The notes under the pieces were generated by a model. That model was not told where the DNA came from. It did not search any database and worked only from the letters and a program-made list of their open reading frames with translations. 37,100 nucleotides of DNA from Xuanwuvirus P884B11: the sequence record NC_049391.1; one strand, written 5' to 3'. Shown piece by piece: positions 402 to 37,100 of this stretch; position 1 is the stretch's first letter; each line of letters starts with the position of its first letter. Position numbers and translations under genes: made by a program.

Positions 402-1448
402 TCAGGATGTGGGCTGGGTGTCCAGCAGTGCATAAGGGTTAAAGCGGATCACCTCTTCGCCAAGCCAGTCATTGATGTGCTTCATGGCCTCCATGACGGG
501 CATCAGCTCGTTAATTGCGTAAACCCGCGCGGCCTTCTCCACATCACCAAACGCACTTTTTTCACCCGGCATCGCCCCCATCAGTTGCGGCGGGACACGG
601 TGCGCAGCCAGCACATCATCACGGGATGCCGCCTTAACATTCATGAACTCATCCTTTGCGGTGATCTGCTGGAACGGCAAAATTTGCACCCCCTCTTTGC
701 CCCCGTTGGGCGCATGAATGAGCACGTTTTTAAACGCACCACCACCACGTGCACCCTGTAACGTTTCTTTCAGGGAGTCCATGCTTTCGCGGTTTACCTG
801 CGCTGCACCGATGTAGATGATGCACCCGGCGTGGGATCCGTTGTCGTAATACAGTTTTCTGAACATGTCCGCCGAATGAGACAGGCTGGCCGAGAGTAAT
901 GCGCCGAGATATTCCGGCATGCCGTAGATTTCCTGGTTAATATCCGGATTCATCAGGTGACACACTTTGCCGGGGCGAAACTGGAACGCGTCCTTGCCAT
1001 CCTGCACATACCACCATGATTCAAGATCGCTTCCGCGTCGCATGTATTTCGCCAGGGCGTGCCGTAATTTAAGCGGTTCGCCGAGCATATTGCTTCGAAG
1101 CTCAAGGAATGCGTTACCGAACACAAACCAGTCCAGCGCCAGCGCCGAGAAATCCTGCCGGGAAAGCAGCGGGTGCGGGATGTAGCAACCGAGTAATACA
1201 TTGCGCTTAAAGTAAAGCGCAGACTGATGCCAGGACGTTTGCCGGGCAGCTCTTGCCAGACCGTACCAGTCCACCGGGGTTTCATACCACCGCCCGTTAT
1301 CAGCACAGTACATATTATCCAGCAGGTCATGCCCGGTCAGGCGATAAGGCCCATCAAATGTGAATGCACTGAGCGACGATTCATTCCTGAGCGCATCAGC
1401 GAGATCAATGCGTGAACTCATGCGCACTTTTTTATTTTTTCTGCTCAT
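402..1448 (-). CDS. Q: Portal (capsid portal) protein, P2 gpQ-like
   Basis: 348-aa ORF; length, position next to terminase P and sequence resemble P2 Q as I recall it; start overlaps the P stop. Confidence 0.85.
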   Translation of the reverse strand: MSRKNKKVRMSSRIDLADALRNESSLSAFTFDGPYRLTGHDLLDNMYCADNGRWYETPVDWYGLARAARQTSWHQSALYFKRNVLLGCYIPHPLLSRQDFSALALDWFVFGNAFLELRSNMLGEPLKLRHALAKYMRRGSDLESWWYVQDGKDAFQFRPGKVCHLMNPDINQEIYGMPEYLGALLSASLSHSADMFRKLYYDNGSHAGCIIYIGAAQVNRESMDSLKETLQGARGGGAFKNVLIHAPNGGKEGVQILPFQQITAKDEFMNVKAASRDDVLAAHRVPPQLMGAMPGEKSAFGDVEKAARVYAINELMPVMEAMKHINDWLGEEVIRFNPYALLDTQPTS

Positions 1449-3199
1449 CAGAACTCCATAACCGTGAAACGCTCGTTTTCTCCTTCGCCGCCAATTGGTT
1501 CGTTAATGACAGCAAGCATGGTTGCCCACGCAAGGTCGCCGTGGCTGATCCCCCTCGCGCGGTCCGTTTCGTAAGTGATAAAGCCGCCCGGTGTTTTCAC
1601 CTTACGCACGGCGTTAAAGGCTGCGACCAGTTCGCGTTCGGCGCGATCGTATTCCCACCGCCCGGCGCGCATTATTTGCAGCATTTTCAGTACCAGCGAC
1701 CGTTTTGATGACAGCGTGAAGGTGTACGGAATAGCAGCAGGGAAAAACCGTTTCACTATCTGATAAACAGCCTCCCCGTTCCCGCCCGTCACATCAATGC
1801 CGATGTGTTCCACGTTGTAGCGACACGTGAACTCTTCAATGACTCTGGCCTGTTCTTCAAACTCCAGCCCCTGAACGCGTCGCGTCTCCACCGTTCGAAA
1901 ACGGCCACCAGGAACAGCCGGAGGGACCACCACGGACACCGCGCCGCTGTCGCCGTTGCCACTGCTGCCGTTTGCGTCATACCCAATCCATACCGGGCGA
2001 TTCCCCATCGGGCGGGGAGCAAAAGGTTTCCAGTCTTTCCAGTCGTCGTATCCGTCAACACCGCAGCCAATCAGGATATTCAGGTTAAATGCCGATTCCC
2101 CTTCGCGGACAAACTCACACATATAGAGATTGAGGAACTCGTCTTCGGTGTTTTCATCACGAATTTCGTCGATATCGGTGTGTTTCCAGCCGTGATTAAC
2201 CACATCTTCCAGCGTGACAATTTGCCGCCACGTCCGGTCAGGGCAGATAAGCCCGTTATGCAGCGTTTTCCAGTCCACAGAAAAACGCTGGCGTTTATGC
2301 GTGGCCTTTTTCTCGTTCCAGCGGTCGCCGTTCCAGTAGGCGTATGCCTCGTGCGTTTCGGTGGATGGCGTGGAGAAGTAGGTGCGCCGCAGTCCGCTGA
2401 GGGTTGCCATAGCGCCAGCCACCTTGCGCAGTTCAGCAAAGCGGCTGACCCAGAAAAATTCATCAAAATAAAAATTGCCAGTATAGGACTGTGCCGACGC
2501 AGCAGAAGTGCCGAGGAAATGCAGCTCTGCGCCGTTGGAGAGGATGATTTTATCACCCCCTTTCAGCTCCACATCAACTTCAGCCGCGGCCTTCTGAATA
2601 ATGCTTTTAAACTGGAACGCCTGACGACGCGACGCAGACAAAAAAATCTGGTTACGCTGGTAAGGTTGCGCCACATCGTCACGCAGCGCCATCAACAGTG
2701 CTTCCTGTGCAAAATACCAGGTCGCCCCAATCTGTCGGGATTTCAGGATCATCCTGTTACGTATCCCGGCTTCCCTGCAAAGGGTCAGGGCGTCAAACCA
2801 GCCCCGCTGATGCCACTCCAGCCTGCTGATGATTTTTTCCCGCAGTGCGGCAATCTGTTCCGGCGTGAAATGATTTTTAAGTTTTTTCGCCCGGGTTTTC
2901 TTTCCTGTGGCCGTCGCATCCGGCTGGTCATTATGCAGTTTTTTAAGCTGCCGGGTCAGCAGGTCTATTTCCTTGAAGTCACCACCTGTTTTATTCTGTT
3001 TTTCAGTAAGCTGGATGAGGCGCGCATCGATGGACTGCGTGACACGCTGCACGGGTGGCGTTTCATCCCACTGATCGCGTTTTTTCCACGCATAAATCGT
3101 GTTCGGGTTTATTCCCATCAGACGTGATATTTCTGCGGGCGGATAACCCTGCCAGTAAAGTTGTCGCGCACGCTGGCGCACAAAAGCGTCCTGAATCAT
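1448..3199 (-). CDS. P: Terminase large (ATPase) subunit, P2 gpP-like
   Basis: 583-aa ORF divergent from the O-N-M capsid operon, as in P2; N-terminal HTH-like segment followed by a large ATPase/nuclease body. Confidence 0.85.
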   Translation of the reverse strand: MIQDAFVRQRARQLYWQGYPPAEISRLMGINPNTIYAWKKRDQWDETPPVQRVTQSIDARLIQLTEKQNKTGGDFKEIDLLTRQLKKLHNDQPDATATGKKTRAKKLKNHFTPEQIAALREKIISRLEWHQRGWFDALTLCREAGIRNRMILKSRQIGATWYFAQEALLMALRDDVAQPYQRNQIFLSASRRQAFQFKSIIQKAAAEVDVELKGGDKIILSNGAELHFLGTSAASAQSYTGNFYFDEFFWVSRFAELRKVAGAMATLSGLRRTYFSTPSTETHEAYAYWNGDRWNEKKATHKRQRFSVDWKTLHNGLICPDRTWRQIVTLEDVVNHGWKHTDIDEIRDENTEDEFLNLYMCEFVREGESAFNLNILIGCGVDGYDDWKDWKPFAPRPMGNRPVWIGYDANGSSGNGDSGAVSVVVPPAVPGGRFRTVETRRVQGLEFEEQARVIEEFTCRYNVEHIGIDVTGGNGEAVYQIVKRFFPAAIPYTFTLSSKRSLVLKMLQIMRAGRWEYDRAERELVAAFNAVRKVKTPGGFITYETDRARGISHGDLAWATMLAVINEPIGGEGENERFTVMEF

Positions 3200-13765: not shown

Positions 13766-14293
13766 ATGCAGCATTTAAAAAATATTAAGTCCGGAAATCC
13801 AAAAACAAAAGAACAATATCAGCTAACAAAGAATTTTGATGTTATCTGGTTATGGTCCGAAGACGGTAAAAACTGGTATGAGGAAGTAAATAACTTTCAG
13901 GACGACACCATAAAGATTGTATACGACGAAAATAATATTATTGTTGCCATAACCAAAGATGCCTCAACGCTTAATCCCGAAGGCTTTAGTGTCGTTGAGA
14001 TTCCAGATATAACAGCCAATCGTCGTGCCGATGATTCAGGGAAGTGGATGTTTAAGGACGGAACTGTGGTTAAGCGGATTTATACAGCAGACGAACAGCA
14101 ACAACAGGCCGAATCACAAAAGGTCGCGTTGCTTTCTGAAGCTGAAAGCGTTATTCAGCCACTGGAACGCGCTGTCAGGCTGAATATGGCGACGGATGAG
14201 GAACGCACACGACTGGAGTCATGGGAACGCTACAGCGTTCTGGTCAGCCGTGTGGATACAGCAAATCCCGAATGGCCACAAAAGCCTGAGTAA
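13766..14293 (+). CDS. G: Tail fibre assembly protein (chaperone), P2 gpG-like
   Basis: 175 aa directly after H; N-terminus [22 protein letters not shown] is shared with the inverted paralogue at 14322-14855. Confidence 0.85.
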
Positions 14294-14321
14294 AAATTAA
14301 GGCCCAATATCGAGCCTTCTC

Positions 14322-14855
14322 TCATTCTGGTTGTTCGGGAAACGTTACTGGCAGGCTGGAGGTGTCTGTAGATTCGACTTTCTGCGCATAGAGCATCCAC
14401 TCGGTTAATTTTTGTTTATTCTCGTCGGAAATGATGCCCAGCCGTAGCTGTGAGTCCCATAGCTGGGTTTTATCCCTGACAAGTTGCAACAGGCTTTGCT
14501 TTTCATTTTCCGCTTGTTGCCTCTGCTCTTCCTCGGTATAAGTTCGCTTTATCACTACGCCATCTTTGAACAACCATTTCCCCGAAATATCAGCCCGGCG
14601 ATTTGCTGTAATATCAGGTAATTCAACGACGCTTGCGCCTTCCGGATTAATTGCTGAAACATCCTTTTCAATACAAATAATAACGCCGTTATGGTCATAG
14701 ACCATTTTCAAAGTGTCTGGCTGGAAATTCTTTTGTTCCTCATACCAGTTTTTTCCATCATCTGAATAAAGCCATTTGATGTTAAATTGCTTTGTTAGCT
14801 GGTATTGCTCTTTTGTTTTAGGGTTGCCAGCAGTAATGTTTTTTAAGTGCATCAT
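14322..14855 (-). CDS. Alternative tail fibre assembly protein (G-prime) in the invertible segment
   Basis: 177 aa on the minus strand; N-terminal 40 aa nearly identical to G, C-terminus diverged; follows the alternative fibre tip. Confidence 0.8.
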   Translation of the reverse strand: MMHLKNITAGNPKTKEQYQLTKQFNIKWLYSDDGKNWYEEQKNFQPDTLKMVYDHNGVIICIEKDVSAINPEGASVVELPDITANRRADISGKWLFKDGVVIKRTYTEEEQRQQAENEKQSLLQLVRDKTQLWDSQLRLGIISDENKQKLTEWMLYAQKVESTDTSSLPVTFPEQPE

Positions 14856-14857
14856 CG

Positions 14858-15553
14858 TTAAATACTCCCCGCGTTATACCACGTCCCATTAATGCAATAC
14901 TGAATTGGCCTTGCCTGTGTTGTATCAATTAATTCATCACGGTTTCCGTTAACTGAACCCGTAACGACATAACCTGACCTGTCAGACCAGCCGGGACCAT
15001 TCCATGTCTGAACAGATGACAGACCGCCAAGGCGAATACCTGTAATAAACCTTGAGTTACATTCTGCCTGCGTATATGCACCAACATCTCCCGCTGAAGG
15101 TTTTCGTGTCGTGGTATAGAAATCTGACCAACCTAATTCAAACCCATAACCATCACGAGCCGACCTGTAGGAAATGCCACCATTTTTATAATTCACACGG
15201 AATTGTACGGCAGGACAGCTACCAGCATTTATATTAAAGTGAAGAATTAATGCAGATGCACCACTAATCAGGGCGTTATATGCACCACTATCCCAATTCC
15301 ATCCAACGGATGTATCACCATTAACAGTATTACCTGTTTGTCGGAGTGCAAATGCATTGACATTTTTGGCACTAATTGAAATATCGCTAGAACCATCAAA
15401 ACCAACTCCAGCAATTTTTCGTGCTGTTTTCAGCTTTGTTGCAGTAGCGGCATTGCCGGACAGTTCCCCAGAAAGGCCACCGCTGAATGTTTGTCGATTG
15501 GTCCAGGTATTCGCTGTACTGAGTAACGGTATTTTCTCCCCGCTTGTGCCGAG
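14858..15553 (-). CDS. Alternative tail fibre C-terminal segment (promoterless; becomes fused to H after inversion)
   Basis: Minus-strand frame is open from the right crossover site down to the stop at 14858, in the phase that continues H across the site; no start codon or RBS of its own at the 5-prime end. Confidence 0.75.
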   Translation of the reverse strand, partial: LGTSGEKIPLLSTANTWTNRQTFSGGLSGELSGNAATATKLKTARKIAGVGFDGSSDISISAKNVNAFALRQTGNTVNGDTSVGWNWDSGAYNALISGASALILHFNINAGSCPAVQFRVNYKNGGISYRSARDGYGFELGWSDFYTTTRKPSAGDVGAYTQAECNSRFITGIRLGGLSSVQTWNGPGWSDRSGYVVTGSVNGNRDELIDTTQARPIQYCINGTWYNAGSI

Positions 15554-15579
15554 TTCTCGTAAACCGAGGTTTTAAATAA
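15554..15579. other. Invertase crossover site (gix-like), right, adjacent to invertase gene
   Basis: TTCTCGTAAACC-GA-GGTTTTAAATAA, close to the Gin/Hin-family site consensus as I recall it; inverted relative to the site at 12876-12901. Confidence 0.8.
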
Positions 15580-15632
15580 TGGCCGTTTCTGGCCTGCATG
15601 GCATGATTTGCGCTTTTGGACGGGAGATTCAG

Positions 15633-16233
15633 TGTGCTGATTGGCTATGTAAGGGTATCAACAAATGACCAGAATACAGACCTGCAACGAAACGCTCTTG
15701 TTTGTGCAGGATGTGAACAAATATTTGAAGATAAATTAAGCGGGACAAAGACAGACCGACCGGGATTAAAACGCGCTTTAAAGCGCCTTCAAAAAGGTGA
15801 CACGCTGGTTGTCTGGAAACTGGATCGCCTCGGGCGAAGCATGAAACATCTGATTTCTCTCGTCGGGGAACTACGGGAGCGAGGGATTAATTTTCGCAGT
15901 CTGACCGACAGCATAGACACATCTTCTCCAATGGGGCGTTTTTTCTTCCACGTGATGGGTGCCCTAGCTGAAATGGAACGTGAATTAATTGTTGAACGTA
16001 CACTGGCCGGGCTGGCGGCAGCGCGCGCAAGGGGACGCACAGGCGGACGTCGACCGAAGCTGACAAAAGAACAGCATGAGCAAATAGCAAGGCTAATCAA
16101 AAACGGGCACGACAGAAAACAACTGGCAATAATTTACGGCATTGGCACATCGACGATTTATCGTTATCACCCTGTAGGCGATATACAGACTGAAGAAACA
16201 ACCGGGCAGACTCAGGAAAATGAAAACCGCTAA
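15633..16233 (+). CDS. Serine DNA invertase, Gin/Pin/Cin/Hin family
   Basis: GTG start with GGGAGA RBS (track offers TTG 15616); LIGYVRVSTNDQNTDLQRNAL catalytic N-terminus and C-terminal HTH, very close to Mu Gin / e14 Pin as I recall them. Confidence 0.9.
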
Positions 16234-22004: not shown

Positions 22005-23114
22005 ATGACCGACACCACCATGCAATTGCTCAGTCAGGGCACAGACCCCGTGAAAATGCCGGATTTTGATATTCTCGCGGAGGGTAAAACGCTGTCAGGC
22101 GTGGCAGAGCGCCTGATGAGCCTGTCACTGACCGACAACCGGGGATTTGAGGCGGACCAGCTCACCATCACGCTGGATGATGCAGATGGTCAGTTGCAGC
22201 TACCGCCACGGGGCGCGCGCCTGACGGTTCTCATTGGCTGGAAAGGAGAACCGCTGACAGAAAAAGGCACTTACATTGTTGATGAAATCGCTCACGAAGG
22301 ACCGCCGGACAGGCTGACTGTTTCAGCCAGAAGCGCAGATTTTCGGGATGAATTTAACGTTAAACGTGAGGTGTCCTGGCATGATGTGACCGTTGAGCGT
22401 GTGGTATCCGCCATCGCTCATCGGTACGGTCTGAAACCGCAAATCAGCGAAATGCTGATGGATATCGAAATCGACCACGCCGACCAGACCGAAGAAAGCG
22501 ACATGTCCTTTCTTACGCGCATGGCGGAAATGCTGGGCGCAATCACCACGGTAAAAAGCGGTAATCTGTTATTCATTATGCCAGGCGGTGGCGTGAACGC
22601 ACAGGGCCAACCGTTGCCATCGTTCGCCATCACGCGCAGCAGTGGCGATCGCCATCAGTTCCGCATTGCTGACCGCGAAGCGTATACGGGTGTACGCGCC
22701 TACTGGCTTGATCTTAATTACGGGAAAAAGAAAAAAGTCAGCGTGAAACGCCGCAAACCGCCAAAACCCAAAAAGGAGAAAAGCAGCAGCCGTGAAGGTG
22801 ATTATATGGAAGGCGCGGAAGGAAATGTGTTTGTGTTACGCAAGACTTATCAGAACGAGCAGGCAGCAAGACGCGCAGCGGCGGCAAAGTGGCAGCAGCT
22901 ACAACGCGGAGCCGCATCATTCTCCATCACACTGGCTCGTGGACGCGCAGAACTCTACCCCGAAATGCATGGCACGGTAACAGGATTTAAAAGCGAGATT
23001 GATAATCAGGACTGGATTATTGCGAAAGCCGATCACACCATTGATAACAGTGGCTTTACCACGCAGCTTGAGCTTGAAGCAAAAATTCCGGAATGGATAG
23101 CAGAAACAGAGTGA
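22005..23114 (+). CDS. D: Tail/late gene D protein, P2 gpD-like
   Basis: Start at MTDTTMQ with GGGAGGG RBS (track ORF starts at 21873, overlapping FI); about 369 aa. Confidence 0.8.
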   Translation: MTDTTMQLLSQGTDPVKMPDFDILAEGKTLSGVAERLMSLSLTDNRGFEADQLTITLDDADGQLQLPPRGARLTVLIGWKGEPLTEKGTYIVDEIAHEGPPDRLTVSARSADFRDEFNVKREVSWHDVTVERVVSAIAHRYGLKPQISEMLMDIEIDHADQTEESDMSFLTRMAEMLGAITTVKSGNLLFIMPGGGVNAQGQPLPSFAITRSSGDRHQFRIADREAYTGVRAYWLDLNYGKKKKVSVKRRKPPKPKKEKSSSREGDYMEGAEGNVFVLRKTYQNEQAARRAAAAKWQQLQRGAASFSITLARGRAELYPEMHGTVTGFKSEIDNQDWIIAKADHTIDNSGFTTQLELEAKIPEWIAETE

Positions 23115-23156
23115 GCAACTTAGAATAGCAGCAGCACCACGTTAAGGGAGGTCGCT

Positions 23157-23417
23157 ATGTTCCGTTGTCCGCTTTGTGGCGCATCTGCCCGTATCCGCAC
23201 CAGTCGTTCGGAAAATGATTCAAACACCGTACGGAAAAAATATTACCAGTGTAACAACCTGGAATGCGGCATAAGTTTCTCAACACTGGAAGCTTTCCAT
23301 AAATTCACATCGAAACACGCCCCCGGCGTTCACTCTTCAGAAGGTATCCCGTGGCATGAGTTGCCAGCTTCACACAGGGGAAACAATCAGATGAGTTTGC
23401 CTTTATCTCAGAATTAA
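23157..23417 (+). CDS. ogr: Late gene transcriptional activator Ogr (zinc-finger), P2 Ogr/186 B-like
   Basis: MFRCPLCG...RTSR...YYQCNNLECGISF: the Cys4 zinc-finger spacing and N-terminus of P2 Ogr. Confidence 0.88.
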   Translation: MFRCPLCGASARIRTSRSENDSNTVRKKYYQCNNLECGISFSTLEAFHKFTSKHAPGVHSSEGIPWHELPASHRGNNQMSLPLSQN

Positions 23418-23607
23418 CAGGCAGAATTGCCGGAGTAACAAAAAAGCGATAGATTACGCGCGGGTGCCTTTCGGCTGATGGTCGGAGGGAATACCCGAAG
23501 GCCAGATGTGGAAAGGCCCCGGAAAACATTTCTGTTTAACCGAGGCCCTAACCGTCTAACCTTAGCAAGTGATAGGTTAGCGCCTCCCTGAAAAAGGAGC
23601 AAGCGCT

Positions 23608-23748
23608 ATGTCGCAAAAATCGCTTACGGCCATCACGTTCTGCGTGACGGCAATCCTCATCATCTGGATGCTGCACGGTTCGCTGTGCGAAATACGGATG
23701 AGCTTCTGGGGAGCGGAGTTTGCGGCGTTCTTACAGTGTAAGCAGTAA
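23608..23748 (+). CDS. Hok/Gef-family type I toxin (small membrane peptide)
   Basis: 46-aa ORF missed by the 60-aa track; hydrophobic TM then SLCEIR...AAF core shared with Hok/Gef; GGAG RBS; upstream hairpin (CTAACCT/AGGTTAG) and strong 3-prime hairpin at 23757-23779. Confidence 0.6.
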   Translation: MSQKSLTAITFCVTAILIIWMLHGSLCEIRMSFWGAEFAAFLQCKQ

Positions 23749-23821
23749 GGAAACCGCGACGGGGGAGCAATCCCCCGTCAATCGGTTGCCAGGGTAAGGT
23801 CGATAAGGCACCCTATCTCAC

Positions 23822-23931
23822 CAATGCCGTTCAGTTAGTTAAGGAATTGAGGTTCGATAGCCCGAACCTCGCGCAGAGGCAATATGACCGAAAGCCTGAT
23901 TCCTTAATGCCCAAGATGAGTCTCTATTCAT
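23822..23931. repeat. Left ~110-bp terminal inverted repeat of the 1.49-kb element
   Basis: Near-identical to the reverse complement of 25201-25307 (a few substitutions, one 3-bp indel); contains nested sub-palindromes TTAAGGAAT...ATTCCTTAA and GAGGTTCG...CGAACCTC. Confidence 0.8.
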
Positions 23932-24157
23932 AAAAGCGCTTAACTACTCGACATTGGCGGTGTATCCCCCGCATTGTCTGAATGCCGCCTCTTACCTTTC
24001 GCGGTCAACTGACGACTTCTAGTTCTAGAACGCCTTGATTTTTTGTACTTGTACATTGAAAAATAACCATAAATTGTTAGCCTGTGCAGTAGACTCAGTG
24101 GTGGTAACTGGTCAGCATGAAGTGTAAAGTGAATAACGAAGCTCTAAAATTATAGGG

Positions 24158-24406
24158 ATGGTCATGAATAATAAGCTAAAGGTAATTGAGTTAAATAGTC
24201 TTGATCTGTTTCGTAAAGAATTACTAACTACTATAAAGCCAGAGAAAGTAGAGAAATTACTTAGATGGTATCTTCAATCATATGGCGGTGTTAATTTCAA
24301 GTTCGGTTATGACAGACCAATTTTTAGAGCGCGAAAGTGCCCAAATGAATGCGGATATAATAACATCAGTGAGATATATCCCCCTCACCAGAAAAATGTA
24401 AAATAG
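24158..24406 (+). CDS. Hypothetical protein; probable N-terminal part of a frameshift-split RES-domain protein
   Basis: 82-aa ORF ending 6 nt before the next ORF; contains PIFRARK, positioned like the conserved N-terminal Arg of RES domains. Confidence 0.5.
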   Translation: MVMNNKLKVIELNSLDLFRKELLTTIKPEKVEKLLRWYLQSYGGVNFKFGYDRPIFRARKCPNECGYNNISEIYPPHQKNVK

Positions 24407-24411
24407 GCCGA

Positions 24412-24990
24412 ATGAATGATGATGGACAAGCTATCTTCTATGGCGCTTATAGTATCGGAACAGCTTTAGCCGAAATTAATGCAAAAGAAGGGGATTATGT
24501 TCACATAGCTCACTTTAAGATGCCGGAAAATTCAGAGTCTGGAATGCGATGTTTTGCTATCGGTGAGGTCTTTAATGTGTATCACGGTGTAAATACAATT
24601 TCAATTGAAGTGTTTAATGAAATTCGCGACATCATTAGCAGAATTGGTAAGGACGACATCCGAGCTTTGCTATCATATTTGTATATGGATGCCCTTTCTG
24701 CTGAGTTGCTTAATAGTATCAATGCCCATGAGGTAAATTATATTTACTCAAGAATTTTTTGCCGTCTTCTTCTTGATAAATACCCTGATGTTGATGGTCT
24801 TATTTATCCTAGCGCTAAAATAAAAGGGGCCTCAAATATCGCTTTGCGCACAGAAACAGTTAAATTGAGAATGCATTTAGTTGCTAATCTTGTGTTTAAA
24901 GTAAATAAAATTTATCCATATGGAATAGTAGATTTCAGTATAGTAAAACAAGCCAAAGGACATACATCAGATGGGCGCATCGTTTGGTGA
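24412..24990 (+). CDS. RES-domain protein (putative NAD-targeting toxin family), C-terminal part
   Basis: 192-aa ORF; the frame is open upstream to give GR-MNDDGQAIFYGAYSIGTALAE (GRxN...Y...E pattern) and later DGLIYPSAKIKGASNIAL (PS motif), the hallmark RES residues as I recall the family. Confidence 0.55.
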   Translation: MNDDGQAIFYGAYSIGTALAEINAKEGDYVHIAHFKMPENSESGMRCFAIGEVFNVYHGVNTISIEVFNEIRDIISRIGKDDIRALLSYLYMDALSAELLNSINAHEVNYIYSRIFCRLLLDKYPDVDGLIYPSAKIKGASNIALRTETVKLRMHLVANLVFKVNKIYPYGIVDFSIVKQAKGHTSDGRIVW

Positions 24991-25200
24991 GCCAAACTTT
25001 TAGTTAGCTGATTGAAAAACCGATGCGTCAGTTTGCACTGCATGTGGTGTATGGGAAGCGCGGGCTTGTAGTGCAGGTCATTTCAGAAGAAGCTAACGAG
25101 AAAGCTTAGACATACTGTGACTACTAAACAAGCAGAAAGCCCGTGTTTATGGGGGCAATCCACACAACAGGCGATGTCGATTAGTTAATACACTTGTATG

Positions 25201-25307
25201 AATAGAGACTCATTTTTGTGCATTAAGGAATCAGGCTTTCAGTCATCTTGCCTCTGCGCGAGGTTCGGGCTATCGAACCTCAATTCCTTAACTGAACTAC
25301 ATTGCCC
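25201..25307. repeat. Right ~110-bp terminal inverted repeat of the 1.49-kb element
   Basis: Reverse complement of the left repeat at 23822-23931. Confidence 0.8.
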
Positions 25308-25502
25308 TATCTCACAGCTCTAAATGCAAAAATCCCATGAAACTGTGGGTATTTCATCACACACTGACACTGCTCTACCTTTCTATATGTATCACTCTAA
25401 ACCAGTTAATCAATTGGCACTTATCAACAACAAAAAATCTGATAAAATCAAAATGTTTTGTAACAAATTTCAGCTTGTAGTGTTCCAAAGGAGACGGATT
25501 AC

Positions 25503-25835
25503 ATGGCATTAATCAAATGTCCTGAATGCCAGAAAGAGGTCAGCGATTCAGCATTATGTTGCCCTGCTTGTGGTAAACAACTGAAAAAACTTAAGCGTTC
25601 ATTTTTTGGAAAACTCATTAAATGGGCTTTTATATTTTTTAATATTTTTATGATCTATACACTTTTAGTTGGACTAGGAGGCGCTGATGAAATAATAAAC
25701 AATACCACATCCGATGCCGAAAAAGCTGGGGCAGTTATTGGTACGGGCTTAGGTTTAATTGTCATTGGAGGCTTATGGGTTATTGGCGATATCATTATCG
25801 GAATTTTAGTATTTCTTACTAAACCAAAGGGATAA
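25503..25835 (+). CDS. Small zinc-ribbon inner-membrane protein (hypothetical)
   Basis: 110 aa; CPEC...CCPACG zinc ribbon, then two hydrophobic helices; AAGGAG RBS; AT-rich codon usage unlike the phage core. Confidence 0.6.
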   Translation: MALIKCPECQKEVSDSALCCPACGKQLKKLKRSFFGKLIKWAFIFFNIFMIYTLLVGLGGADEIINNTTSDAEKAGAVIGTGLGLIVIGGLWVIGDIIIGILVFLTKPKG

Positions 25836-25839
25836 TAAA

Positions 25840-26733
25840 ATGAAAAATATGATTTTTACTATAGGTGCATTATTTATATCAATTAGTGTACTGCCTGTTC
25901 ACGCAGCAACTGAACATAAGAATTTCAATGCAGTGCTCCAGTGCCGAGCGATAGAAAACAATAAAGACAGACTTTCTTGTTATGATAAGTCAATACAACC
26001 GACTCGAACGAAAGTTGCTGAAAAATTTGAAAGCAGGGATCAATGCCCTGATGAGAAAGATGATGACAAACGTTTATCTTGTTATGATCGTTTTTTTTCT
26101 CCAACATTTACTCCATCTGTAAACTCAAAATCTAAAACGGAAAAGCTAGTAACAACAGAGGCTCAGCAACCAAATCTTTCTGAAATATCTAAATGCCGAG
26201 CAGAAAATGATAAAGAAACCAGACTAAACTGCTACGATAAACTATTCCCACAGGATGAAGCTGTTCAATCTGAATCACAATTAGAGAAAGCCACAGATGC
26301 AGGAAAATGGCACACGTCCATTACTACATCGCCAATTGATGATTCGAAAAATGTAATTTTATCGTTAGAAAGTGATGATTATATCAGAACTCCATTTGGA
26401 GAAGCTGTTACTCCCACTCTGTTTATAGCTTGCCGAGAAAAGAAAACCGAAGTATTTCTTAGTTGGGATGTATATTTAGGCCTTGAACAAACCAGCATGC
26501 TGTATCGTCTTGATAAACAGAAAGCAGTTGAAAGAAACTGGCTAATATCTACAGATACAAAGGCTGTTTTTTATAAAGGTAATGATATTGATTTCATAAG
26601 AAAACTTGCCAACTCACATAAAATGTACACAAAAATAACCCCCTATAATGAAAGCCCTGTAAGTGCAACTTTCAATTTAAGCGGCCTGTCAAATGCACTA
26701 AAACCGCTTCAAGATGCTTGTAACTGGAAATAG
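25840..26733 (+). CDS. Secreted (periplasmic) protein with three tandem Cys-pair repeats (hypothetical)
   Basis: 297 aa; signal peptide ending VHA-A; three copies of C-x11-C-YD(K/R) (QCRAIENNKDRLSCYDK, QCPDEKDDDKRLSCYDR, KCRAENDKETRLNCYDK); starts 5 nt after the previous ORF; AT-rich. Confidence 0.6.
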   Translation: MKNMIFTIGALFISISVLPVHAATEHKNFNAVLQCRAIENNKDRLSCYDKSIQPTRTKVAEKFESRDQCPDEKDDDKRLSCYDRFFSPTFTPSVNSKSKTEKLVTTEAQQPNLSEISKCRAENDKETRLNCYDKLFPQDEAVQSESQLEKATDAGKWHTSITTSPIDDSKNVILSLESDDYIRTPFGEAVTPTLFIACREKKTEVFLSWDVYLGLEQTSMLYRLDKQKAVERNWLISTDTKAVFYKGNDIDFIRKLANSHKMYTKITPYNESPVSATFNLSGLSNALKPLQDACNWK

Positions 26734-26754
26734 TATATACCTCCCCAATATCAG

Positions 26755-26792
26755 ATGACAAAACGCCCGTGAAAACGGGCGTTTTGTCATCT
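26755..26792. terminator. Intrinsic terminator-like hairpin after the accessory cassette
   Basis: Perfect 16-bp inverted repeat GATGACAAAACGCCCG / CGGGCGTTTTGTCATC with a 6-nt loop, T-run within the 3-prime arm. Confidence 0.6.
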
Positions 26793-27071
26793 GTAACTCG
26801 AAAATGTGGTCATTGCGTGGACATACGATGATATAAATCCTTTTATATCAAAAGATTAAACCACTATTATTTTCCTCAACAAGGATTTTTAACCCTTTTT
26901 CAGTCTCTGACAATCTAAGGCTCCTTTATCAACAAACGCCCATTTGCAAACTGCTGTTTAATCTGAAAAAACATTAATAATCACACAGATAACAACATAA
27001 CCATTTAGACGGGCAATACTGAAAAATTGTTATTCAGTATCGCCCTTTAAGCCGTTTCAGGCTATATAAAA

Positions 27072-28076
27072 TTAATCCCCCGTGGACACTGCGTGGACAC
27101 TTACGCCACCTTTCAGCGGATTAAGGGCCACCGCATCCTGCAGGTAATCCGGTGCAAAATGCGCATATGCCATTGTTTGCTGAATGGTTGCGTGACCAAG
27201 AATCTTCTGAAGCGCAATAATGTTTCCTCCGTTCATCACAAAATGGCTGGCGAACGTATGCCGCAGCACATGTGCAGCCTGGCCTTTTGGTAAATCGGGC
27301 TTAACTCTTTTCAGTGCCAGGCAGAATTCCCGGTACTTCACCTCAAACAAGCCGCCTGTTTCTCTGGTTTTGATCGCCTCACAAACTGCCTGCGAAATTG
27401 GCACTGTTCTCTTCCGGCCATTTTTGGTTTCAAGAAACGTTACACGGTTATGAACTATCTGTTCACCACGAAGCTTACAAGCTTCACTCCAGCGCGCCCC
27501 TGTGCTTAAACACAAAAGCGCAACACGCCAGTAGTCGCCCTCCAGTGTATCGAGCAATAGCGCCACTTCCTTCTGTGACAGGAACGCCATTTCTCGTGGA
27601 GATACATAAAGAATAGAAATTCCCCTTACTGGATGTTCTGCATCCCAAAGACCTATTTTTTTCAGCACGGTAAACATTCCGGATAACCGATTCATGTACC
27701 TGTTAGCAGATGACGGTTTCAATCCTTCAGCTATCTTTTGAGAACGCCACGCGATAATTTTCAGCTTATCAAGATCCACAGCCTGCATATCAGCGCCAAG
27801 CTCATTGATTATGTTGCGCAGTTGTTTTCGGTCTTCTTCCGCCTTACGCCTGTGCTGGCCGTGATACATCCACCACAACTCAAGCAAATCATTTAGCGTT
27901 CGACGATCACGGTAGCCCTGTATATATTCCCGCTTTTCAGCGTTCGCCATGATGTAGCGTTCAGTGGCCACCGCTACCGATTTTTTGTCAAATACCTTAC
28001 GCACGCGCTTTCCCTTGCGTCCGTTCGGCCTGATGTCCAGCAAATAACGACCATCTTCGAGCTTCTTAATCGACAT
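27072..28076 (-). CDS. int: Tyrosine integrase, P2 Int family
   Basis: Start at MSIKKLEDGRY (P2 Int begins MAIKKLDDGRY); C-terminal ARWSEA...HVLRHTFASH...LGHATIQQTMAYAH catalytic motifs (R, H-x-x-R, Y). Confidence 0.9.
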   Translation of the reverse strand: MSIKKLEDGRYLLDIRPNGRKGKRVRKVFDKKSVAVATERYIMANAEKREYIQGYRDRRTLNDLLELWWMYHGQHRRKAEEDRKQLRNIINELGADMQAVDLDKLKIIAWRSQKIAEGLKPSSANRYMNRLSGMFTVLKKIGLWDAEHPVRGISILYVSPREMAFLSQKEVALLLDTLEGDYWRVALLCLSTGARWSEACKLRGEQIVHNRVTFLETKNGRKRTVPISQAVCEAIKTRETGGLFEVKYREFCLALKRVKPDLPKGQAAHVLRHTFASHFVMNGGNIIALQKILGHATIQQTMAYAHFAPDYLQDAVALNPLKGGVSVHAVSTGD

Positions 28077-28172
28077 TACGAAGCCCTCCAATGAACCGCT
28101 CTACAATTTCTCCAGCCTCTTTCCAGCAATAATCAGACCAGACAAAAAGCAGGTCTAACCAGTTTTCTGGCC

Positions 28173-32187: not shown

Positions 32188-35010
32188 ATGACGGCAGAGT
32201 ACATCAGGGACTGGCAACAACCGCGCCACGCAGTGGGGCGTGAAGGAACGGGGATCCCCGCTCCTGAATCCGCGCTTTCCTCCTGGCTGGATGCCTACCG
32301 GGTAGAGAACGAGCGCCGCCAGGAAATGGCTGATGCGGCGTTCTCCGCAACGCCGCTGGGCAACCTGATTAATAAAAGCCTGGACGCACAGGAAAAACAG
32401 GACAAAACCATCACACTGGCAGGAGATGCCAGAAAACAGGCACGCGGCGCGGTGGATGAAGCCATGGCCTCGCTGCGCCTGCTGCCGTCCTATCTGCGCG
32501 ATCCGCTTATTCGCCACCTCTCCTTCCTGCGCAAAAAACAGGAAGCCGATCGTCAGAAAGGCAAAAAGAGCTGGCAGGCTGAACGCTACGCGCGCGGAAA
32601 CCTGCGCAAAATATTCGAACGTCTGGAGCGCACCGATCACCGCTGGCTGACACAGGGTTATCGCTCCCTTGCCGGACGCGAACGCCTGGACGATTTGCTT
32701 TACCTGCCGCAGCTCAACAAACACCAGATACAGACACTGGCCACCATGACGGCGGCGATGTTCAGCAGCACCTTCGAAAAACTCTGCGATGGCTTTGGCG
32801 CGACCGATGGCGAACTGACCATGGATGTAACGCTGAAGGCGTATCAGATGCTGGCCCGCATGGCGTTACACCTGCACGCCATACCTCCACATTATGACGC
32901 ACTGACAACAGACAAAGACCGGAGGAACGAACCGGACACGGAGCTGCTGCCGGGCGCAATCCTTCGCCTGACCTGTGCAGAATGGTGGAAACGCAAACTG
33001 TGGCTGTTACGTTGCGAGTGGAGAGAAGAACAACTCCGCGCCGCCTGTCTGGTTTCCAGAAAAACATCGCCCTATCTGAGCCAGGACGCGTTAAGCGAGT
33101 TTCGCGCACAGCGCGAGAAAACACGCGATTTCCTGAAAAGTTTCATGCTGGAAAATGAAGACGGGTTCACGATTGATCTCGAGACAGTGTATTACGCGGG
33201 AGTAAGTAACCCGGTTCACCGTAAGGCAGAAATGATGGCCACCATGAAGGGGCTGGAACTTCTGGCCGAAGCCCGTGGTGACAAAGCGGTGTTTCTGACT
33301 GTCACCTGCCCGTCAAAATACCACGCAACAACGGAGAACGGTCATCCGAACCCCAAATGGAACGGGGCCACCATGCGCGACTCCAGCGATTACCTGGTTA
33401 ACACGTTTTTTGCGGCGGTCCGCAAAAAACTGAACCGCGACGGCCTGCGCTGGTATGGCATCCGCACGGTGGAGCCTCACCATGACGGCACCGTGCACTG
33501 GCATATGATGGTCTTTGCTCATCCGGAAGAAATCGACAGCATCGTGGCCATCACCCGCGATATTGCCATTCAGGAAGATCGTCACGAACTGGGCGATGAT
33601 ATTACTCCGCGCTTTAAGGCGGAGTATGTCGACGGCTCAAAAGGCACACCAACCAGCTATATCGCGACCTACATCGGAAAAAACCTGGACAGCCGCGCCG
33701 TAGATGGCATCGACCCGAAAACGGGCAAGCCACGCGTTGACCACGAAACCGGAAAATCAATGGCCGAGAGCGTGGAGCGCGCCATTGGCTGGGCGCGTCT
33801 TCATCGGGTCCGCCAGTTCCAGTTCTTTGGCATCCCCTCCCGTCAGGTATGGCGTGAACTCCGCCGCCTTGCCAGCCAGATGGCACGCAACCCGGAAGGC
33901 CCGCAACGGCTGAAGGATGATGCAATGGATGCGGTACTCGCTGCCGCTGATGCCGGGTGTTTTGCCTCCTACATTGAAAAACAGGGCGGCGTACTTGTTC
34001 CACGTAAAGACTACCTGATTCGCACCGCCTACGACCTCGCAGATGAGCTGAACGATTACGGCGAGCAGAGTGTACAGATTTACGGGATCTGGTCGCCGCT
34101 CATCGGGGAGTCTTCCCGCGTGTGTACGCACCCGGATAACTGGAAGCTGGTAAGACGTAAACCGGAAGCGGAAGACAGCGCCCGCGAAAATGGTTTTGAC
34201 CTTCAGGGCGGCCCTACCGCCCCTTGGACTCGTGGCAATAACTGTCCCCGTGTACAGGAAACGGACAACAACGGGACAGAACAGCCGGAAGAACGGCCAG
34301 CACCGTGGCCGCAGCTTCCTGACGGCGTTGACGTGAATGAATGGATGCGCTCACTGAAACGGCACGAACGCCGGGCGCTGATGCGTTCGCTGCGTGACAA
34401 ACAGGCAAAAAACAGCAGTGATGAAATGCAGAACTGGACACAGAGCCGCAAACAGCCACGGCCTTTGCCTGATAACCACGAGTTACTCGCTAAAGAATGG
34501 CGGGAGTCTGCTGAATCTCTCGGCCTGCATATCGGTGAACAGCAGATGCAGCACCTGTTACGGGGCGGCAGTCTGTACGTTGACGGCAGCATCATTGCAC
34601 CGCAGGGATTTGAAATTGTACGCAAACCAGATACCCGCCCGGACAGCCGAATCACGCAACTCTGGCAGCGCCTGAGCCGTAATCACGGCGTAAGCAGCAC
34701 GGAGATCCGCCATAACCCGGTCGCCAGCTATCTGGAACAGCTGGGGGCATCAGACCCCGAAGCCGCCGCACACCTGGCATCCACACTTCAGCAGGACCAG
34801 AACACCATGAAAACCCCCGTTACCGTGCTTTCTGACATGCTGCGCGCCATCCGTGACGCAGAGCACGCACAGAGAATCAGTGAAACCACTGAACGCGCCC
34901 ACCGCAAAGCAGACCTGCTGCGGGGTAGCCTGACCAGTGGAAACAAAAAACAGACAGAAACGGGACTCACAAATCCCGTAAATGAGCAAAAAACGTGCCG
35001 CGATATATGA
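32188..35010 (+). CDS. A: Replication initiation protein A (rolling-circle, HUH endonuclease), P2 gpA-like with long C-terminal extension
   Basis: 940 aa; HUH-type TVHWHMMVF motif; position after the early ORFs as in P2. Confidence 0.85.
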   Translation: MTAEYIRDWQQPRHAVGREGTGIPAPESALSSWLDAYRVENERRQEMADAAFSATPLGNLINKSLDAQEKQDKTITLAGDARKQARGAVDEAMASLRLLPSYLRDPLIRHLSFLRKKQEADRQKGKKSWQAERYARGNLRKIFERLERTDHRWLTQGYRSLAGRERLDDLLYLPQLNKHQIQTLATMTAAMFSSTFEKLCDGFGATDGELTMDVTLKAYQMLARMALHLHAIPPHYDALTTDKDRRNEPDTELLPGAILRLTCAEWWKRKLWLLRCEWREEQLRAACLVSRKTSPYLSQDALSEFRAQREKTRDFLKSFMLENEDGFTIDLETVYYAGVSNPVHRKAEMMATMKGLELLAEARGDKAVFLTVTCPSKYHATTENGHPNPKWNGATMRDSSDYLVNTFFAAVRKKLNRDGLRWYGIRTVEPHHDGTVHWHMMVFAHPEEIDSIVAITRDIAIQEDRHELGDDITPRFKAEYVDGSKGTPTSYIATYIGKNLDSRAVDGIDPKTGKPRVDHETGKSMAESVERAIGWARLHRVRQFQFFGIPSRQVWRELRRLASQMARNPEGPQRLKDDAMDAVLAAADAGCFASYIEKQGGVLVPRKDYLIRTAYDLADELNDYGEQSVQIYGIWSPLIGESSRVCTHPDNWKLVRRKPEAEDSARENGFDLQGGPTAPWTRGNNCPRVQETDNNGTEQPEERPAPWPQLPDGVDVNEWMRSLKRHERRALMRSLRDKQAKNSSDEMQNWTQSRKQPRPLPDNHELLAKEWRESAESLGLHIGEQQMQHLLRGGSLYVDGSIIAPQGFEIVRKPDTRPDSRITQLWQRLSRNHGVSSTEIRHNPVASYLEQLGASDPEAAAHLASTLQQDQNTMKTPVTVLSDMLRAIRDAEHAQRISETTERAHRKADLLRGSLTSGNKKQTETGLTNPVNEQKTCRDI

Positions 35011-35086
35011 AGCGCGCACAAAACAGGCAAAAGCGGGATTTAAAAATCCTGTAACCGATTAATTAATCAACATAAGGAAAAGCGAC

Positions 35087-36046
35087 ATGAAAATTTGTAT
35101 CGACGACGGCTCCACCAACATCAAGCTGGCATGGACTGAGAACGGCGAACGCCGCAACGCCATCAGCCCGAACAGCTTCAAGTCGGAATGGTCTGCGCCG
35201 TTCGGTGGCACGCAGCCCGCGAACTACATGCTTGATGGCGTGCGCTATGGTTTTGATCCGGTCAGCGATCGCTTTGTCCAGACGACCGACACGCAATACC
35301 AGTACAGCGATGTGAATATAATTGCCATTCATCACGCGCTGGTCAAATCAGGCATCACACCACAGGAAGTGGATGTGGTTGTCACCCTGCCACTAAGCGA
35401 GTATTTCGATACAAACGCACAGCCGGACATGGCCAACATCAACCGCAAAAAAGCGAACGTCATGCGCCCGGTGGAGTACCAGAACGGCGAAGCATTCACT
35501 ATCCGTAACGTACGGGTTATGCCTGAATCCATTCCGGCTGGCTTTAAGGCACTGGCTGACATGAGTCCGTTTGAATCCCTGCTGATTGTGGATTTGGGCG
35601 GAACCACGCTGGATGTGGCAAAGGTTCAGGGGCAACTGGCAGGTATCAGCCAGGTGTTTTGCGATCCACACGTGGGCGTTTCTCTGATGGCCGATGCCGT
35701 ACTGTCGGTGATGGCCACTAACGGTATGCGCACCAGTCACCACATCGCCAATACCATTATCGAACATCGCCATGATGAAGCCTGGCTGCGCCAGCACATC
35801 CACAATGACGCGCATTACGCCAGCCTGATGGCGGTAATTCGTGAAAAGGAAGAAACACTGAAACAACGCGTGATCCGCGCGCTGGCGGGTTTTTCGGGTT
35901 ACGGGCGGGTGATGGTTGTCGGTGGAGGGGCGGAGATTGTGGCACCCGCTATCCGCGAAGCCTGCGGAGTTAATGCGACTTTCATCGCGGACGGGGTGCC
36001 ACAGTTTGCTCTGGTTAATGGGCTGTACGCAATGGACAAGGAGTAA
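35087..36046 (+). CDS. parM: Actin-like segregation ATPase ParM (StbA) family
   Basis: 319 aa; N-terminus DDGSTNIKLAW, ISPNSFK, YSDVNIIAIHHAL, VMPESIPAG, LIVDLGGTTLD, VVGGGAE track plasmid R1 ParM almost motif for motif as I recall it. Confidence 0.85.
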   Translation: MKICIDDGSTNIKLAWTENGERRNAISPNSFKSEWSAPFGGTQPANYMLDGVRYGFDPVSDRFVQTTDTQYQYSDVNIIAIHHALVKSGITPQEVDVVVTLPLSEYFDTNAQPDMANINRKKANVMRPVEYQNGEAFTIRNVRVMPESIPAGFKALADMSPFESLLIVDLGGTTLDVAKVQGQLAGISQVFCDPHVGVSLMADAVLSVMATNGMRTSHHIANTIIEHRHDEAWLRQHIHNDAHYASLMAVIREKEETLKQRVIRALAGFSGYGRVMVVGGGAEIVAPAIREACGVNATFIADGVPQFALVNGLYAMDKE

Positions 36047-36050
36047 ACCA

Positions 36051-36362
36051 ATGACGACTCCAACCAGACGGATAAGTTTCTATCTGAAGCCCACCGCCGT
36101 CAAGAACGAAGGAGAAGCATGCGCCTGGCTGGACAGCCTTACACCAGAAGCCCGCAAAAGCGGCCAACGCGTGGCTTTTCTGGCCGGGCTGGCACTTCTG
36201 AAAATGAATCCGGCAGAGGCTTATCGACTGGCTGCATGGGCTGGTGATGAAGCGTTATCAGTGACACAAACCAGGACAGAACGCCCCGCATCACAGCCAG
36301 TATCAACCGCACAGATAACCAGTCAGATGGCCGGAAATATCCGGGCGTTATTTCCTGAATAA
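36051..36362 (+). CDS. parR: ParR (StbB) centromere-binding adaptor
   Basis: About 103 aa from MTTPTRR; RRISFYLKP...LDSL...AFLAGLALLKMNP mirrors R1 ParR (RTIAFKLNP...LDSI...ALTAGLALYRQDP); start 5 nt after the parM stop with AAGGAG RBS. Confidence 0.75.
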   Translation: MTTPTRRISFYLKPTAVKNEGEACAWLDSLTPEARKSGQRVAFLAGLALLKMNPAEAYRLAAWAGDEALSVTQTRTERPASQPVSTAQITSQMAGNIRALFPE

Positions 36363-36425
36363 CACAACATCAGGGCGAGTTCGCCCTGCTCTCCACCTCA
36401 GAACATAAACAAGGAGAACGACTTA

Positions 36426-37016
36426 ATGAGCGAAATCAACTATCAGGCATTACGTGAACGTTATTCACCTGTGCCAGTACCGAAATGCCCTATTTGCGGC
36501 GAGGAAATGTCAATTCAGCGAATATCTGGAGCACAGGTTGTTTATGCCTGCTCCGGTTATGGTGATGATGGAGATTTCAAAATTGGCCGAACTCTTGCTG
36601 ACGAACATTATGAAAAATCACGCGTAACAGTGTTGGATGTCGGGGATCCTGAAGTATTGGCGCTACTTGATTGGCTGGAAACCAAAGACAACCGAATCGC
36701 TGAACTGGAAAAAATCGCCACTGACTATGCACTTAAATTCCAGAAAGCACAGGACGCATTAAAGCATGCCGCTTTGCTGCATAGCAGGACGGCGCAACAA
36801 ACAAATAATTTTGCAGTATCGCTTCCGGACATAAGCGAATATTTCATTAATGACGTATTTCAGCCCTTGCGATACGAGCGGGATGTTGAAAGAGCCATCA
36901 TAAAGGCTGGCGGAAAAGCATTGTGGCAGGAGAAACACGAGGACAGAACGCATCAGTCATGCGATGTAAATTGTGGATGGTTTAGCCCACTGACGACAGA
37001 TAAAAATAACACCTGA
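36426..37016 (+). CDS. Hypothetical protein with N-terminal zinc-ribbon-like CxxC motif
   Basis: 196-aa ORF with AAGGAG RBS; CPICGEE...YACSG motif, helical middle; no family recognised. Confidence 0.45.
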   Translation: MSEINYQALRERYSPVPVPKCPICGEEMSIQRISGAQVVYACSGYGDDGDFKIGRTLADEHYEKSRVTVLDVGDPEVLALLDWLETKDNRIAELEKIATDYALKFQKAQDALKHAALLHSRTAQQTNNFAVSLPDISEYFINDVFQPLRYERDVERAIIKAGGKALWQEKHEDRTHQSCDVNCGWFSPLTTDKNNT

Positions 37017-37100
37017 TCCCCCTCAAACCAGGGCGATAATCGCACATCGCCCTGCTGCACAATAGTGCACAAATTTGCACAATTTTTTTGAACGAATTTT

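Follow-up and report, generated by a model that had tools for sequence, protein, structure and literature searches.

What occupies the space between the late-gene activator gene ogr and the integrase gene int in Xuanwuvirus P884B11, and how did it come to lie there? The window analyzed here (NC_049391.1; 37,100 nt) is a complete P2-like phage genome in which this interval spans 3654 bp (23418-27071). The same interval in phage P2 (NC_001895), from the ogr end at 24254 to the int end at 24462, measures 207 bp. Its only annotated features are the terminator of ogr, the P arm for Int, which starts 5 bp past that terminator, an integration host factor (IHF) site, the core of the phage attachment site (attP) and Cox sites; the P' arm overlaps the 3' end of int. 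The original prediction, made from the window sequence alone, was of a 3.6-kb island holding three cargo units in a row (a Hok-like toxin, a RES element bounded by inverted repeats, and a membrane/secreted protein pair) where P2 has only attP. Both the island and its three units are borne out by our analysis. The reading that we favor, with a probability of roughly 85%, is that the interval is an accessory slot of P2-like phages that was filled in three separate steps, one of them the transposition of an IS4-type cassette.

Cargo turnover between conserved flanks

Both flanks of the interval (Table 1) have clear counterparts in P2. Ogr aligns over its full length with P2 Ogr (29 identities in 75 columns) and Int shares 167 of 336 aligned positions with P2 Int; beyond int lie a C-type repressor gene and then cox. 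From left to right, the interval contains a hok/sok-like module, the RES unit, a two-gene unit encoding a Zn-ribbon membrane protein and a VasI-like secreted protein, and attP. The interval had been taken as cargo throughout, which holds except for the rightmost ~270 bp (26798-27071), where attP lies and cargo is absent. The prediction that it is mostly AT-rich applies to the RES unit (39.4% GC) and the Zn-ribbon/VasI pair (35.9%), both of which fall well below the 51.8% of the whole window along the GC profile, but not to the hok module, whose 54.0% is core-like; attP itself has a GC content of 33.2%.

The content of the slot was surveyed in 80 IMG/VR loci whose gpD is at least 99% identical to that of P884B11. 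Many IMG/VR contigs end exactly at the hok stop codon and were left out, being uninformative on what follows. Among relatives this close, including 74 from IMG/VR with near-identical gpD, at least five states were found 3' of hok: a terminator followed by host DNA (at serS, ihfA/pheT or tRNA/pgsA sites); com with a DNA methyltransferase gene; a TM2 protein gene with com and the methyltransferase gene; the Zn-ribbon/VasI pair; and the RES cassette followed by that pair. The ogr-hok block on one side and the P arm and int on the other are conserved, and the content between them is variable, with no single gene content shared by all of these relatives. The same picture is seen in 5426 complete Escherichia coli genomes, where the ogr-hok block is present in 1179, the Zn-ribbon/VasI unit in 237, the com/methyltransferase unit in 171 and the RES cassette in 66; approximately 490 further complete genomes share just the terminator 3' of hok. 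Near-identical phages therefore carry differing cargo or none at this place, as expected of the accretion hotspot that had been proposed.

Table 1. Features of the P884B11 genome discussed in the text. Positions are those of the window; expression signals and protein functions are predictions.
Feature	Position	Strand	Basis or remark
Portal gene	402-1448	-	
Tail-fiber assembly genes (two, opposed)	13766-14293; 14322-14855	+; -	
Cin/Hin-type serine invertase gene	15616-16233		
gpD	22005-23114		
ogr, late-gene activator	23157-23417	+	Left conserved flank; PF04606, 57.8 bits
hok/sok-like type I toxin-antitoxin module	23418-23821	+	Hok open reading frame 23608-23748; sok-like region 23462-23621
Target-site duplication, left copy	23811-23821	none	CCCTATCTCAC; read from the sequence
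Non-autonomous IS4-subgroup-type mobile insertion cassette (predicted)	23822-25304	+	1483 bp; RES gene as sole gene
Left terminal inverted repeat	23822-23936	+	Begins CAATGCCGTTCAGTTAGTTAAGGA; repeat search, arm-to-arm alignment, comparison with K-12 IS4
RES gene, N-terminal fragment	24158-24406	+	82 aa, with R55 and R57; alignment with three intact prophage copies
RES gene, C-terminal fragment	24412-24990	+	192 aa, with E104 and S217; PF08808, 39 bits
Right terminal inverted repeat	25193-25304	-	Repeat search, arm-to-arm alignment
Target-site duplication, right copy	25305-25315	none	CCCTATCTCAC; read from the sequence
Two-gene low-GC unit	25316-26797	+	Promoter-like site, Zn-ribbon gene, VasI gene, terminator hairpin
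Promoter-like site	25421-25448		Consensus match
Zn-ribbon membrane protein gene	25503-25835	+	110 aa; PF13248/PF13240; N-terminal Zn ribbon, two hydrophobic segments
Secreted VasI/IalB-fold protein gene	25840-26733	+	297 aa; PF11319, 91.7 bits; signal peptide
Terminator hairpin	26752-26793		Perfect, 19 bp
P2-type attP	26798-27099	none	P arm, IHF-site-like AT block, core, P' arm
int	27072-28091	-	Right conserved flank; PF24624 and PF00589
gpA	32188-35010		
ParM-like actin gene	35087-36046		gpA-to-portal cargo, with a 148-aa open reading frame
Ead/Ea22-like protein gene	36426-37016		gpA-to-portal cargo

The RES cassette and its passenger

The central unit of the island has the anatomy of a mobile insertion cassette (MIC) and, judged by its sequence, it arrived by transposition and not as a classical moron. 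Its terminal inverted repeats of ~115 bp share a longest ungapped block of 78 nt at 96% identity, and their arm-to-arm alignment contains one 4-nt and one 1-nt indel. Directly outside both repeat ends lies a perfect 11-bp duplication, CCCTATCTCAC, which is present as a single copy at the empty site of relatives that do not carry the cassette (phages 500465-2 and Chuche). The termini, CAATGCCGTTCAGTTA (...AGGA) on the left and CAATGTAGTTCAGTTA on the right, resemble those of the E. coli K-12 insertion sequence (IS) IS4 (TAATGCCGATCAGTTAAGGA and TAATGCCAGTCAGTTAAGCA), which is itself flanked by a 12-bp duplication. They fit the signature -AATR--------WTW- described for the IS4 subgroup, and the duplication falls within the 10-13-bp range of that subgroup (PMC2266710). 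The repeats differ from those of IS4 in length, as the latter are 18-20 bp. Apart from the two RES fragments and their overlaps, no open reading frame (ORF) of more than 40 aa lies between the cassette ends, and no transposase gene is present.

In combining IS-type inverted repeats, a passenger gene and a target duplication without a transposase, the unit resembles MIC231 of the IS231 subgroup and the MICs that carry qnrD and qnrS2. It differs from these known cassettes in that its passenger is a RES-domain gene, its host replicon is a phage and it has no known parent IS. By 2008, derivatives carrying a passenger gene were on record for the IS231 subgroup only (PMC2266710), and an IS4-type RES cassette appears to be undescribed in the open-access literature that we searched.

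Besides the full and empty alleles, a remnant was found in metagenome contig L119 (OLNN01001643.1), where 71 bp (2966-3036) at the same site consist of cassette ends only. This remnant is palindromic, being made up of the outer portions of the two ends fused at their internal GAGGTTCGA hairpins, and has the same 11-bp duplication, bar a single mismatch, on either side. A second insertion site lies directly 3' of ogr in Enterobacter-type P2-like prophages (L091 and L114), which carry the same left end and a RES gene 88-92% identical to that of the cassette; the right end is absent from these copies. In E. coli the cassette occurs once per genome and always in the same context. Because its 66 copies equal in number the class of neighboring VasI units with at least 99% identity, they look like the product of one insertion event that later spread with the phage. 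Scans of viral and metagenome sequences for the cassette ends returned only this prophage context, one Enterobacter-type copy and the one remnant. The repeats contain a GGTTCGA hairpin, from which a tRNA-like element was suspected, but ARAGORN found none.

In five of five relatives the passenger gene is intact and encodes a RES protein of 275 aa (PF08808, 46.5 bits for an intact relative). In the window, deletion of a single C at 24386/24387 turns the CCCCCTCCACC of all five into CCCCCTCACC and splits the gene into ORFs of 82 and 192 aa. An alignment of 17 family members shows no variation at R55, R57, E104 and S217, which by the Pfam family definition would be the catalytic R-E-S residues. 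Since the deletion parts the conserved Arg pair from the Glu and Ser, the window RES gene is very probably inactive; the RES domain and inverted repeats that had been predicted are present, but the gene is split.

When an AlphaFold2 (AF2) model of the intact protein (pLDDT 82) was compared with the PDB, the best matches were RES toxins: Pseudomonas putida RES, ParT, NatT and VPA0770. The top ten Foldseek matches are all RES toxins, at modest values (probability 0.57-1.0, E ~1e-3, TM to target ~0.5). A profile of the family searched against PDB sequences returned noise only, so the kinship to RES toxins is visible through Pfam and fold comparison only. The family has in common with the type II toxins of RES-Xre pairs (P. 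putida RES, ParT, NatT and MbcT) the RES Pfam domain, a RES/ART-like fold and the invariant Arg, Glu and Ser, and the protein probably works like a RES toxin. It differs from them in size (275 aa versus ~150-190 aa), in an additional N-terminal helical extension and a helical insertion seen in the model, and, in the window, in being frameshifted. No adjacent gene for an Xre/DUF2384-type antitoxin is present in the cassette, and none was called in seven homologue contexts; the protein is therefore outside the RES-Xre two-gene family. Among these contexts are a Lelliottia chromosome, the edge of a Citrobacter prophage, MobA/TraD-bearing integrated mobile elements of E. coli and Salmonella, and a locus 3' of guaA in Aeromonas; RES homologues occur alone on chromosomes, on integrated mobile elements and at prophage edges. 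The 57%-identical homologues on the MobA/TraD elements (L097-L103) always have a 176-aa ORF without a Pfam match ~250 bp upstream. This ORF, which is absent from the phage cassette, could encode a partner protein of RES.

The hok module, the Zn-ribbon/VasI pair and the attachment site

The Hok ORF encodes a 46-aa peptide of the Hok/Gef family (PF01848, 29.9 bits with a cut-off of 22) and matches phrog_251, "MokW-like host killing" (E = 1e-22). Over 373 nt the module is ~82% identical at the nucleotide level to a Hok/Gef (MokW-like) locus of Stx2 phages, which we take to be hokW. Like hokW-sokW of Stx2 prophage Sp5 (Takada et al. 2021, PMC8621323) and the wider hok/sok family, it encodes a Hok-family peptide and is prophage-borne. 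It differs from the Sp5 locus in phage type and position, standing beside ogr in a P2-like phage, and in that its Sok RNA is a sub-threshold Rfam match and its toxicity is predicted from sequence. The ogr-hok block is kept in almost all close relatives; neither P2 nor any of the examined relatives in Klebsiella, Enterobacter and Dickeya carries the module. The module, of core-like composition, is an old acquisition that has become fixed in the lineage and stands outside the current turnover.

The Zn-ribbon and VasI genes are separated by 4 bp. Behind its signal peptide, the VasI protein has three helical modules of the "C..RLxCYD" type and ends in a VasI domain of ~180 aa; the number of the N-terminal modules varies from one to three across homologues. 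Modeled with AF2, the C-terminal domain matches IalB (PF06776; PDB 3DTD) with E = 4e-6, suggesting a shared fold. All Enterobacterales homologues that were looked up, from Klebsiella, Citrobacter, Salmonella, Dickeya and a second E. coli lineage, lie in the ogr-to-att slot of P2-like prophages, at identities of 42-63% (60% in Klebsiella and 42% in the second E. coli lineage) and usually beside a small membrane protein; in Klebsiella, Citrobacter and Dickeya the pair occurs without RES or hok. The pair is an old and widespread resident of the slot and not a one-off, and it looks like a long-retained prophage envelope module. Of the 241 matches to the unit among the complete E. coli genomes, nine fall on records labeled as plasmids.

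The C-terminal domain of the window protein aligns with the VasI/TagO proteins associated with type VI secretion systems (T6SS) (PF11319, TIGR03360), and proteins of this subfamily are named "type VI secretion system-associated protein TagO" by NCBI. The match to TIGR03360 scores 79.4 bits, under the equivalog cut-off of 124.2, and the window protein further differs from its T6SS counterparts in its location at the end of a P2-like prophage, its N-terminal "C..RLxCYD" modules and its Zn-ribbon membrane partner. No T6SS cluster surrounds the VasI gene in the window or in six other Enterobacterales contexts, and a Photobacterium copy is likewise not in one. Because the Enterobacterales homologues sit in the prophage slot and none in a T6SS cluster, the TagO name is doubtful for this subfamily. 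In the Klebsiella, Citrobacter, Salmonella, Dickeya and E. coli loci concerned (L106-L112 and L120-L123), the genes for proteins annotated as TagO sit where a P2-like prophage ends next to ogr. As cargo of P2 prophages, VasI/TagO appears to be undescribed in the open-access literature searched.

The attachment site has the same order as that of P2. The P arm (26806-26823, GTGGTCATTGCGTGGACA) and the P' arm (27082-27099, GTGGACACTGCGTGGACA), the latter within the 3' end of int, match the annotated P2 arms, and between them an AT block, AATCCTTTTAT, corresponds to the P2 IHF region and precedes the core. This 22-bp core (26868-26889, TATTTTCCTCAACAAGGATTTT) matches E. coli K-12 attB, which overlaps the first codons of pdxB, at 21 of 22 positions. 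In lysogens, phage identity stops at 26889 in attR. As the rightmost part of the interval is attP and identity ends at this point, all cargo lies between the ogr end and the P arm, and the island of a lysogen directly adjoins attR, beside flk, which agrees with the predicted prophage-end location. On integration the phage core restores the 5' end of pdxB, but the gene is cut off from its own promoter, and its transcription must therefore come from the int side. The minus strand carries a promoter-like site (26913 to 26885) near the pdxB junction (window 26868-26913; L105 2827-2852).

Competing explanations and relation to known hotspots

The course of events that we favor is as follows. The slot is delimited by the terminator of ogr on one side and by the P arm, to which Int binds, on the other, and it becomes the attR end of the prophage on integration at the 5' end of pdxB. 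A hok/sok-type module sits beside ogr and is now fixed in this E. coli lineage, probably retained as an addiction module or, by analogy with hokW-sokW of Sp5, as a lysis aid. The self-contained low-GC Zn-ribbon/VasI operon would be exchanged as a unit through recombination within the conserved sequences on either side, its Zn-ribbon protein predicted to act in the inner membrane and its VasI/IalB-fold protein in the periplasm of the lysogen's cell envelope. The 1.48-kb cassette, lacking a transposase, would have jumped into the exact junction of hok and the pair, duplicating 11 bp and bringing a stand-alone 275-aa RES gene, with a putative NAD+-consuming or ADP-ribosylating toxin fold, along with its own upstream region. 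Cargo turnover thus upholds the notion of moron accretion, from which the hok module, as a fixture of the lineage, and the RES unit, as a transposed one, both depart.

The alternative with the most in its favor, which we consider less likely, is that the slot is only partly free and that the Zn-ribbon/VasI pair is a long-standing, selectively retained module of P2-like phages whose phage-related role in the envelope would be, for instance, to keep out incoming contractile-tail phages, tailocins or T6SS attack. The recurrence of homologues in the same slot across genera, usually with a small membrane protein upstream, the membership of both proteins in PHROG families and the lack of a T6SS cluster in all seven contexts argue for retention, and against it stand the presence of the pair in just 237 E. 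coli genomes compared with 1179 carrying the ogr-hok block, its GC content of 36%, its replacement by com/methyltransferase or nothing in phages with 99% identical gpD, and an orientation that varies between lineages. A more far-reaching proposal, which seems to us unlikely, would make the cassette the first recognized IS4-subgroup MIC, shuttling an antitoxin-less, self-regulated RES toxin of NADase type, with an abortive-infection or addiction role, to the att-proximal slot, and would make the Enterobacterales "TagO" a non-T6SS envelope module of P2 prophages that, with its Zn-ribbon partner, shields lysogens from contractile injection machines.

The remaining explanations have much less to commend them. 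That the three units form one co-adapted system, whether a RES toxin held in check by its neighbors or a composite defense island, would account for their adjacency on one strand and in one order in 66 genomes, yet these copies look like one inherited event, the RES unit is bounded by its own inverted ends and target duplication, and PADLOC matches none of the units; the occurrence of every unit without the others contradicts a single system, and we consider the idea improbable. Slightly less probable still is a RES unit that is an invertible switch, or a moron acquired by recombination around which the repeats arose locally. Inverted repeats of 115 bp could allow inversion by homologous recombination, and neither a transposase nor a parent IS was found; on the other side, the termini fit the IS4-subgroup signature, and the sole invertase gene of the window lies ~7.6 kb upstream in the tail-fiber region. 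The perfect 11-bp duplication outside both ends with its single copy at the empty site, and the same orientation of every copy examined, contradict the switch. We give least credence to host DNA captured by imprecise excision from a former site, as in specialized transduction. The position of the island at the attR end of the prophage would suit such an origin, but imprecise excision would leave host DNA beyond the core, and the location of the cargo within an intact attP, with the P arm and core to the right, contradicts this. In E. coli, moreover, this cargo is found at prophage ends, its GC content of 36-39% is unlike that of E. coli, and the same cargo is present in prophages at other attachment sites.

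Several observations weigh against a slot filled by a transposing cassette and other functional cargo. Two exact-pattern scans of 185,579 species genomes gave no match to a parent IS with the cassette ends, although a diverged parent could escape such scans, and the ends had no match in plasmids, in deposited phages or elsewhere in the 5426 E. coli genomes. Because no cognate IS with these ends was found, mobilization in trans is something that we infer, and all 66 E. coli copies, sitting at a single site, are no evidence of present mobility. The RES frameshift is possibly a sequencing error. The sok-like leader region scores 43.6 bits (E = 1.5e-7) against Rfam RF01794, under the gathering score of 59, and the promoter and terminator calls are consensus matches whose number is no higher than in shuffled sequence. 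PADLOC gave no match for Hok, RES, the Zn-ribbon protein or VasI, and a defense role of the island is accordingly unsupported.

A variable hotspot at this place has already been described (Egorov et al., bioRxiv 10.1101/2024.10.15.618418), and minor P2 defense hotspots near int and att have been listed (PMC13586616). The P884B11 island shares with the published P2-like hotspot (PMC9122126; PMC13586616) its location in the gpD-to-C stretch, its conserved core flanks and its low-GC cargo that varies between near-identical phages; the hotspot as such is known, and the window is a further example of it. In contrast to the published "third hotspot", this lineage has two slots, one between gpD and ogr (empty in the window) and one between hok and the P arm (filled), and the proteins of the filled slot do not match PADLOC defense models. 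The gpD-ogr gap (23115-23156, 42 bp) is hypervariable in relatives: among 74 IMG/VR loci whose gpD is at least 99% identical, 32 have inserts of 1-3.8 kb there, with 32-43% GC, that fall into 17 different clusters. The cargo there includes PifA-like, PDC-S06 and PDC-S31 candidates, as well as an ORF pair whose larger member weakly matches PADLOC pVip (viperin).

Two other parts of the genome correspond to classical variable sites of P2-like phages. The low-GC region 3' of the tail-fiber gene (13766-16233) occupies the classical Z/fun position and, with two opposed tail-fiber assembly genes and a Cin/Hin-type serine invertase gene, is a segment for host-range switching by inversion. The classical gpA-to-portal (old/tin) hotspot (35011-37100, wrapping to 1-401) carries other genes in place of old/tin.

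In conclusion, the central claim adds an example and not a new principle, as earlier publications already describe a variable slot of P2-like phages between tail genes and immunity region, and the most novel pieces, the RES cassette and the location of TagO, are secondary to the claim from which this work started. The locus does illustrate that one slot may be filled by different mechanisms, namely the exchange of cassettes within conserved flanks and the transposition of an IS4-type element that lacks a transposase, with empty, full and remnant alleles all observable in nature. The 275-aa RES family, which lacks an antitoxin partner and recurs on phages and integrated mobile elements, is a candidate self-controlled NAD+-targeting toxin. 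Finally, the presence of "T6SS-associated TagO" proteins at the ends of P2-like prophages in several genera calls this annotation into question and makes these proteins candidates for a lysogenic-conversion function.

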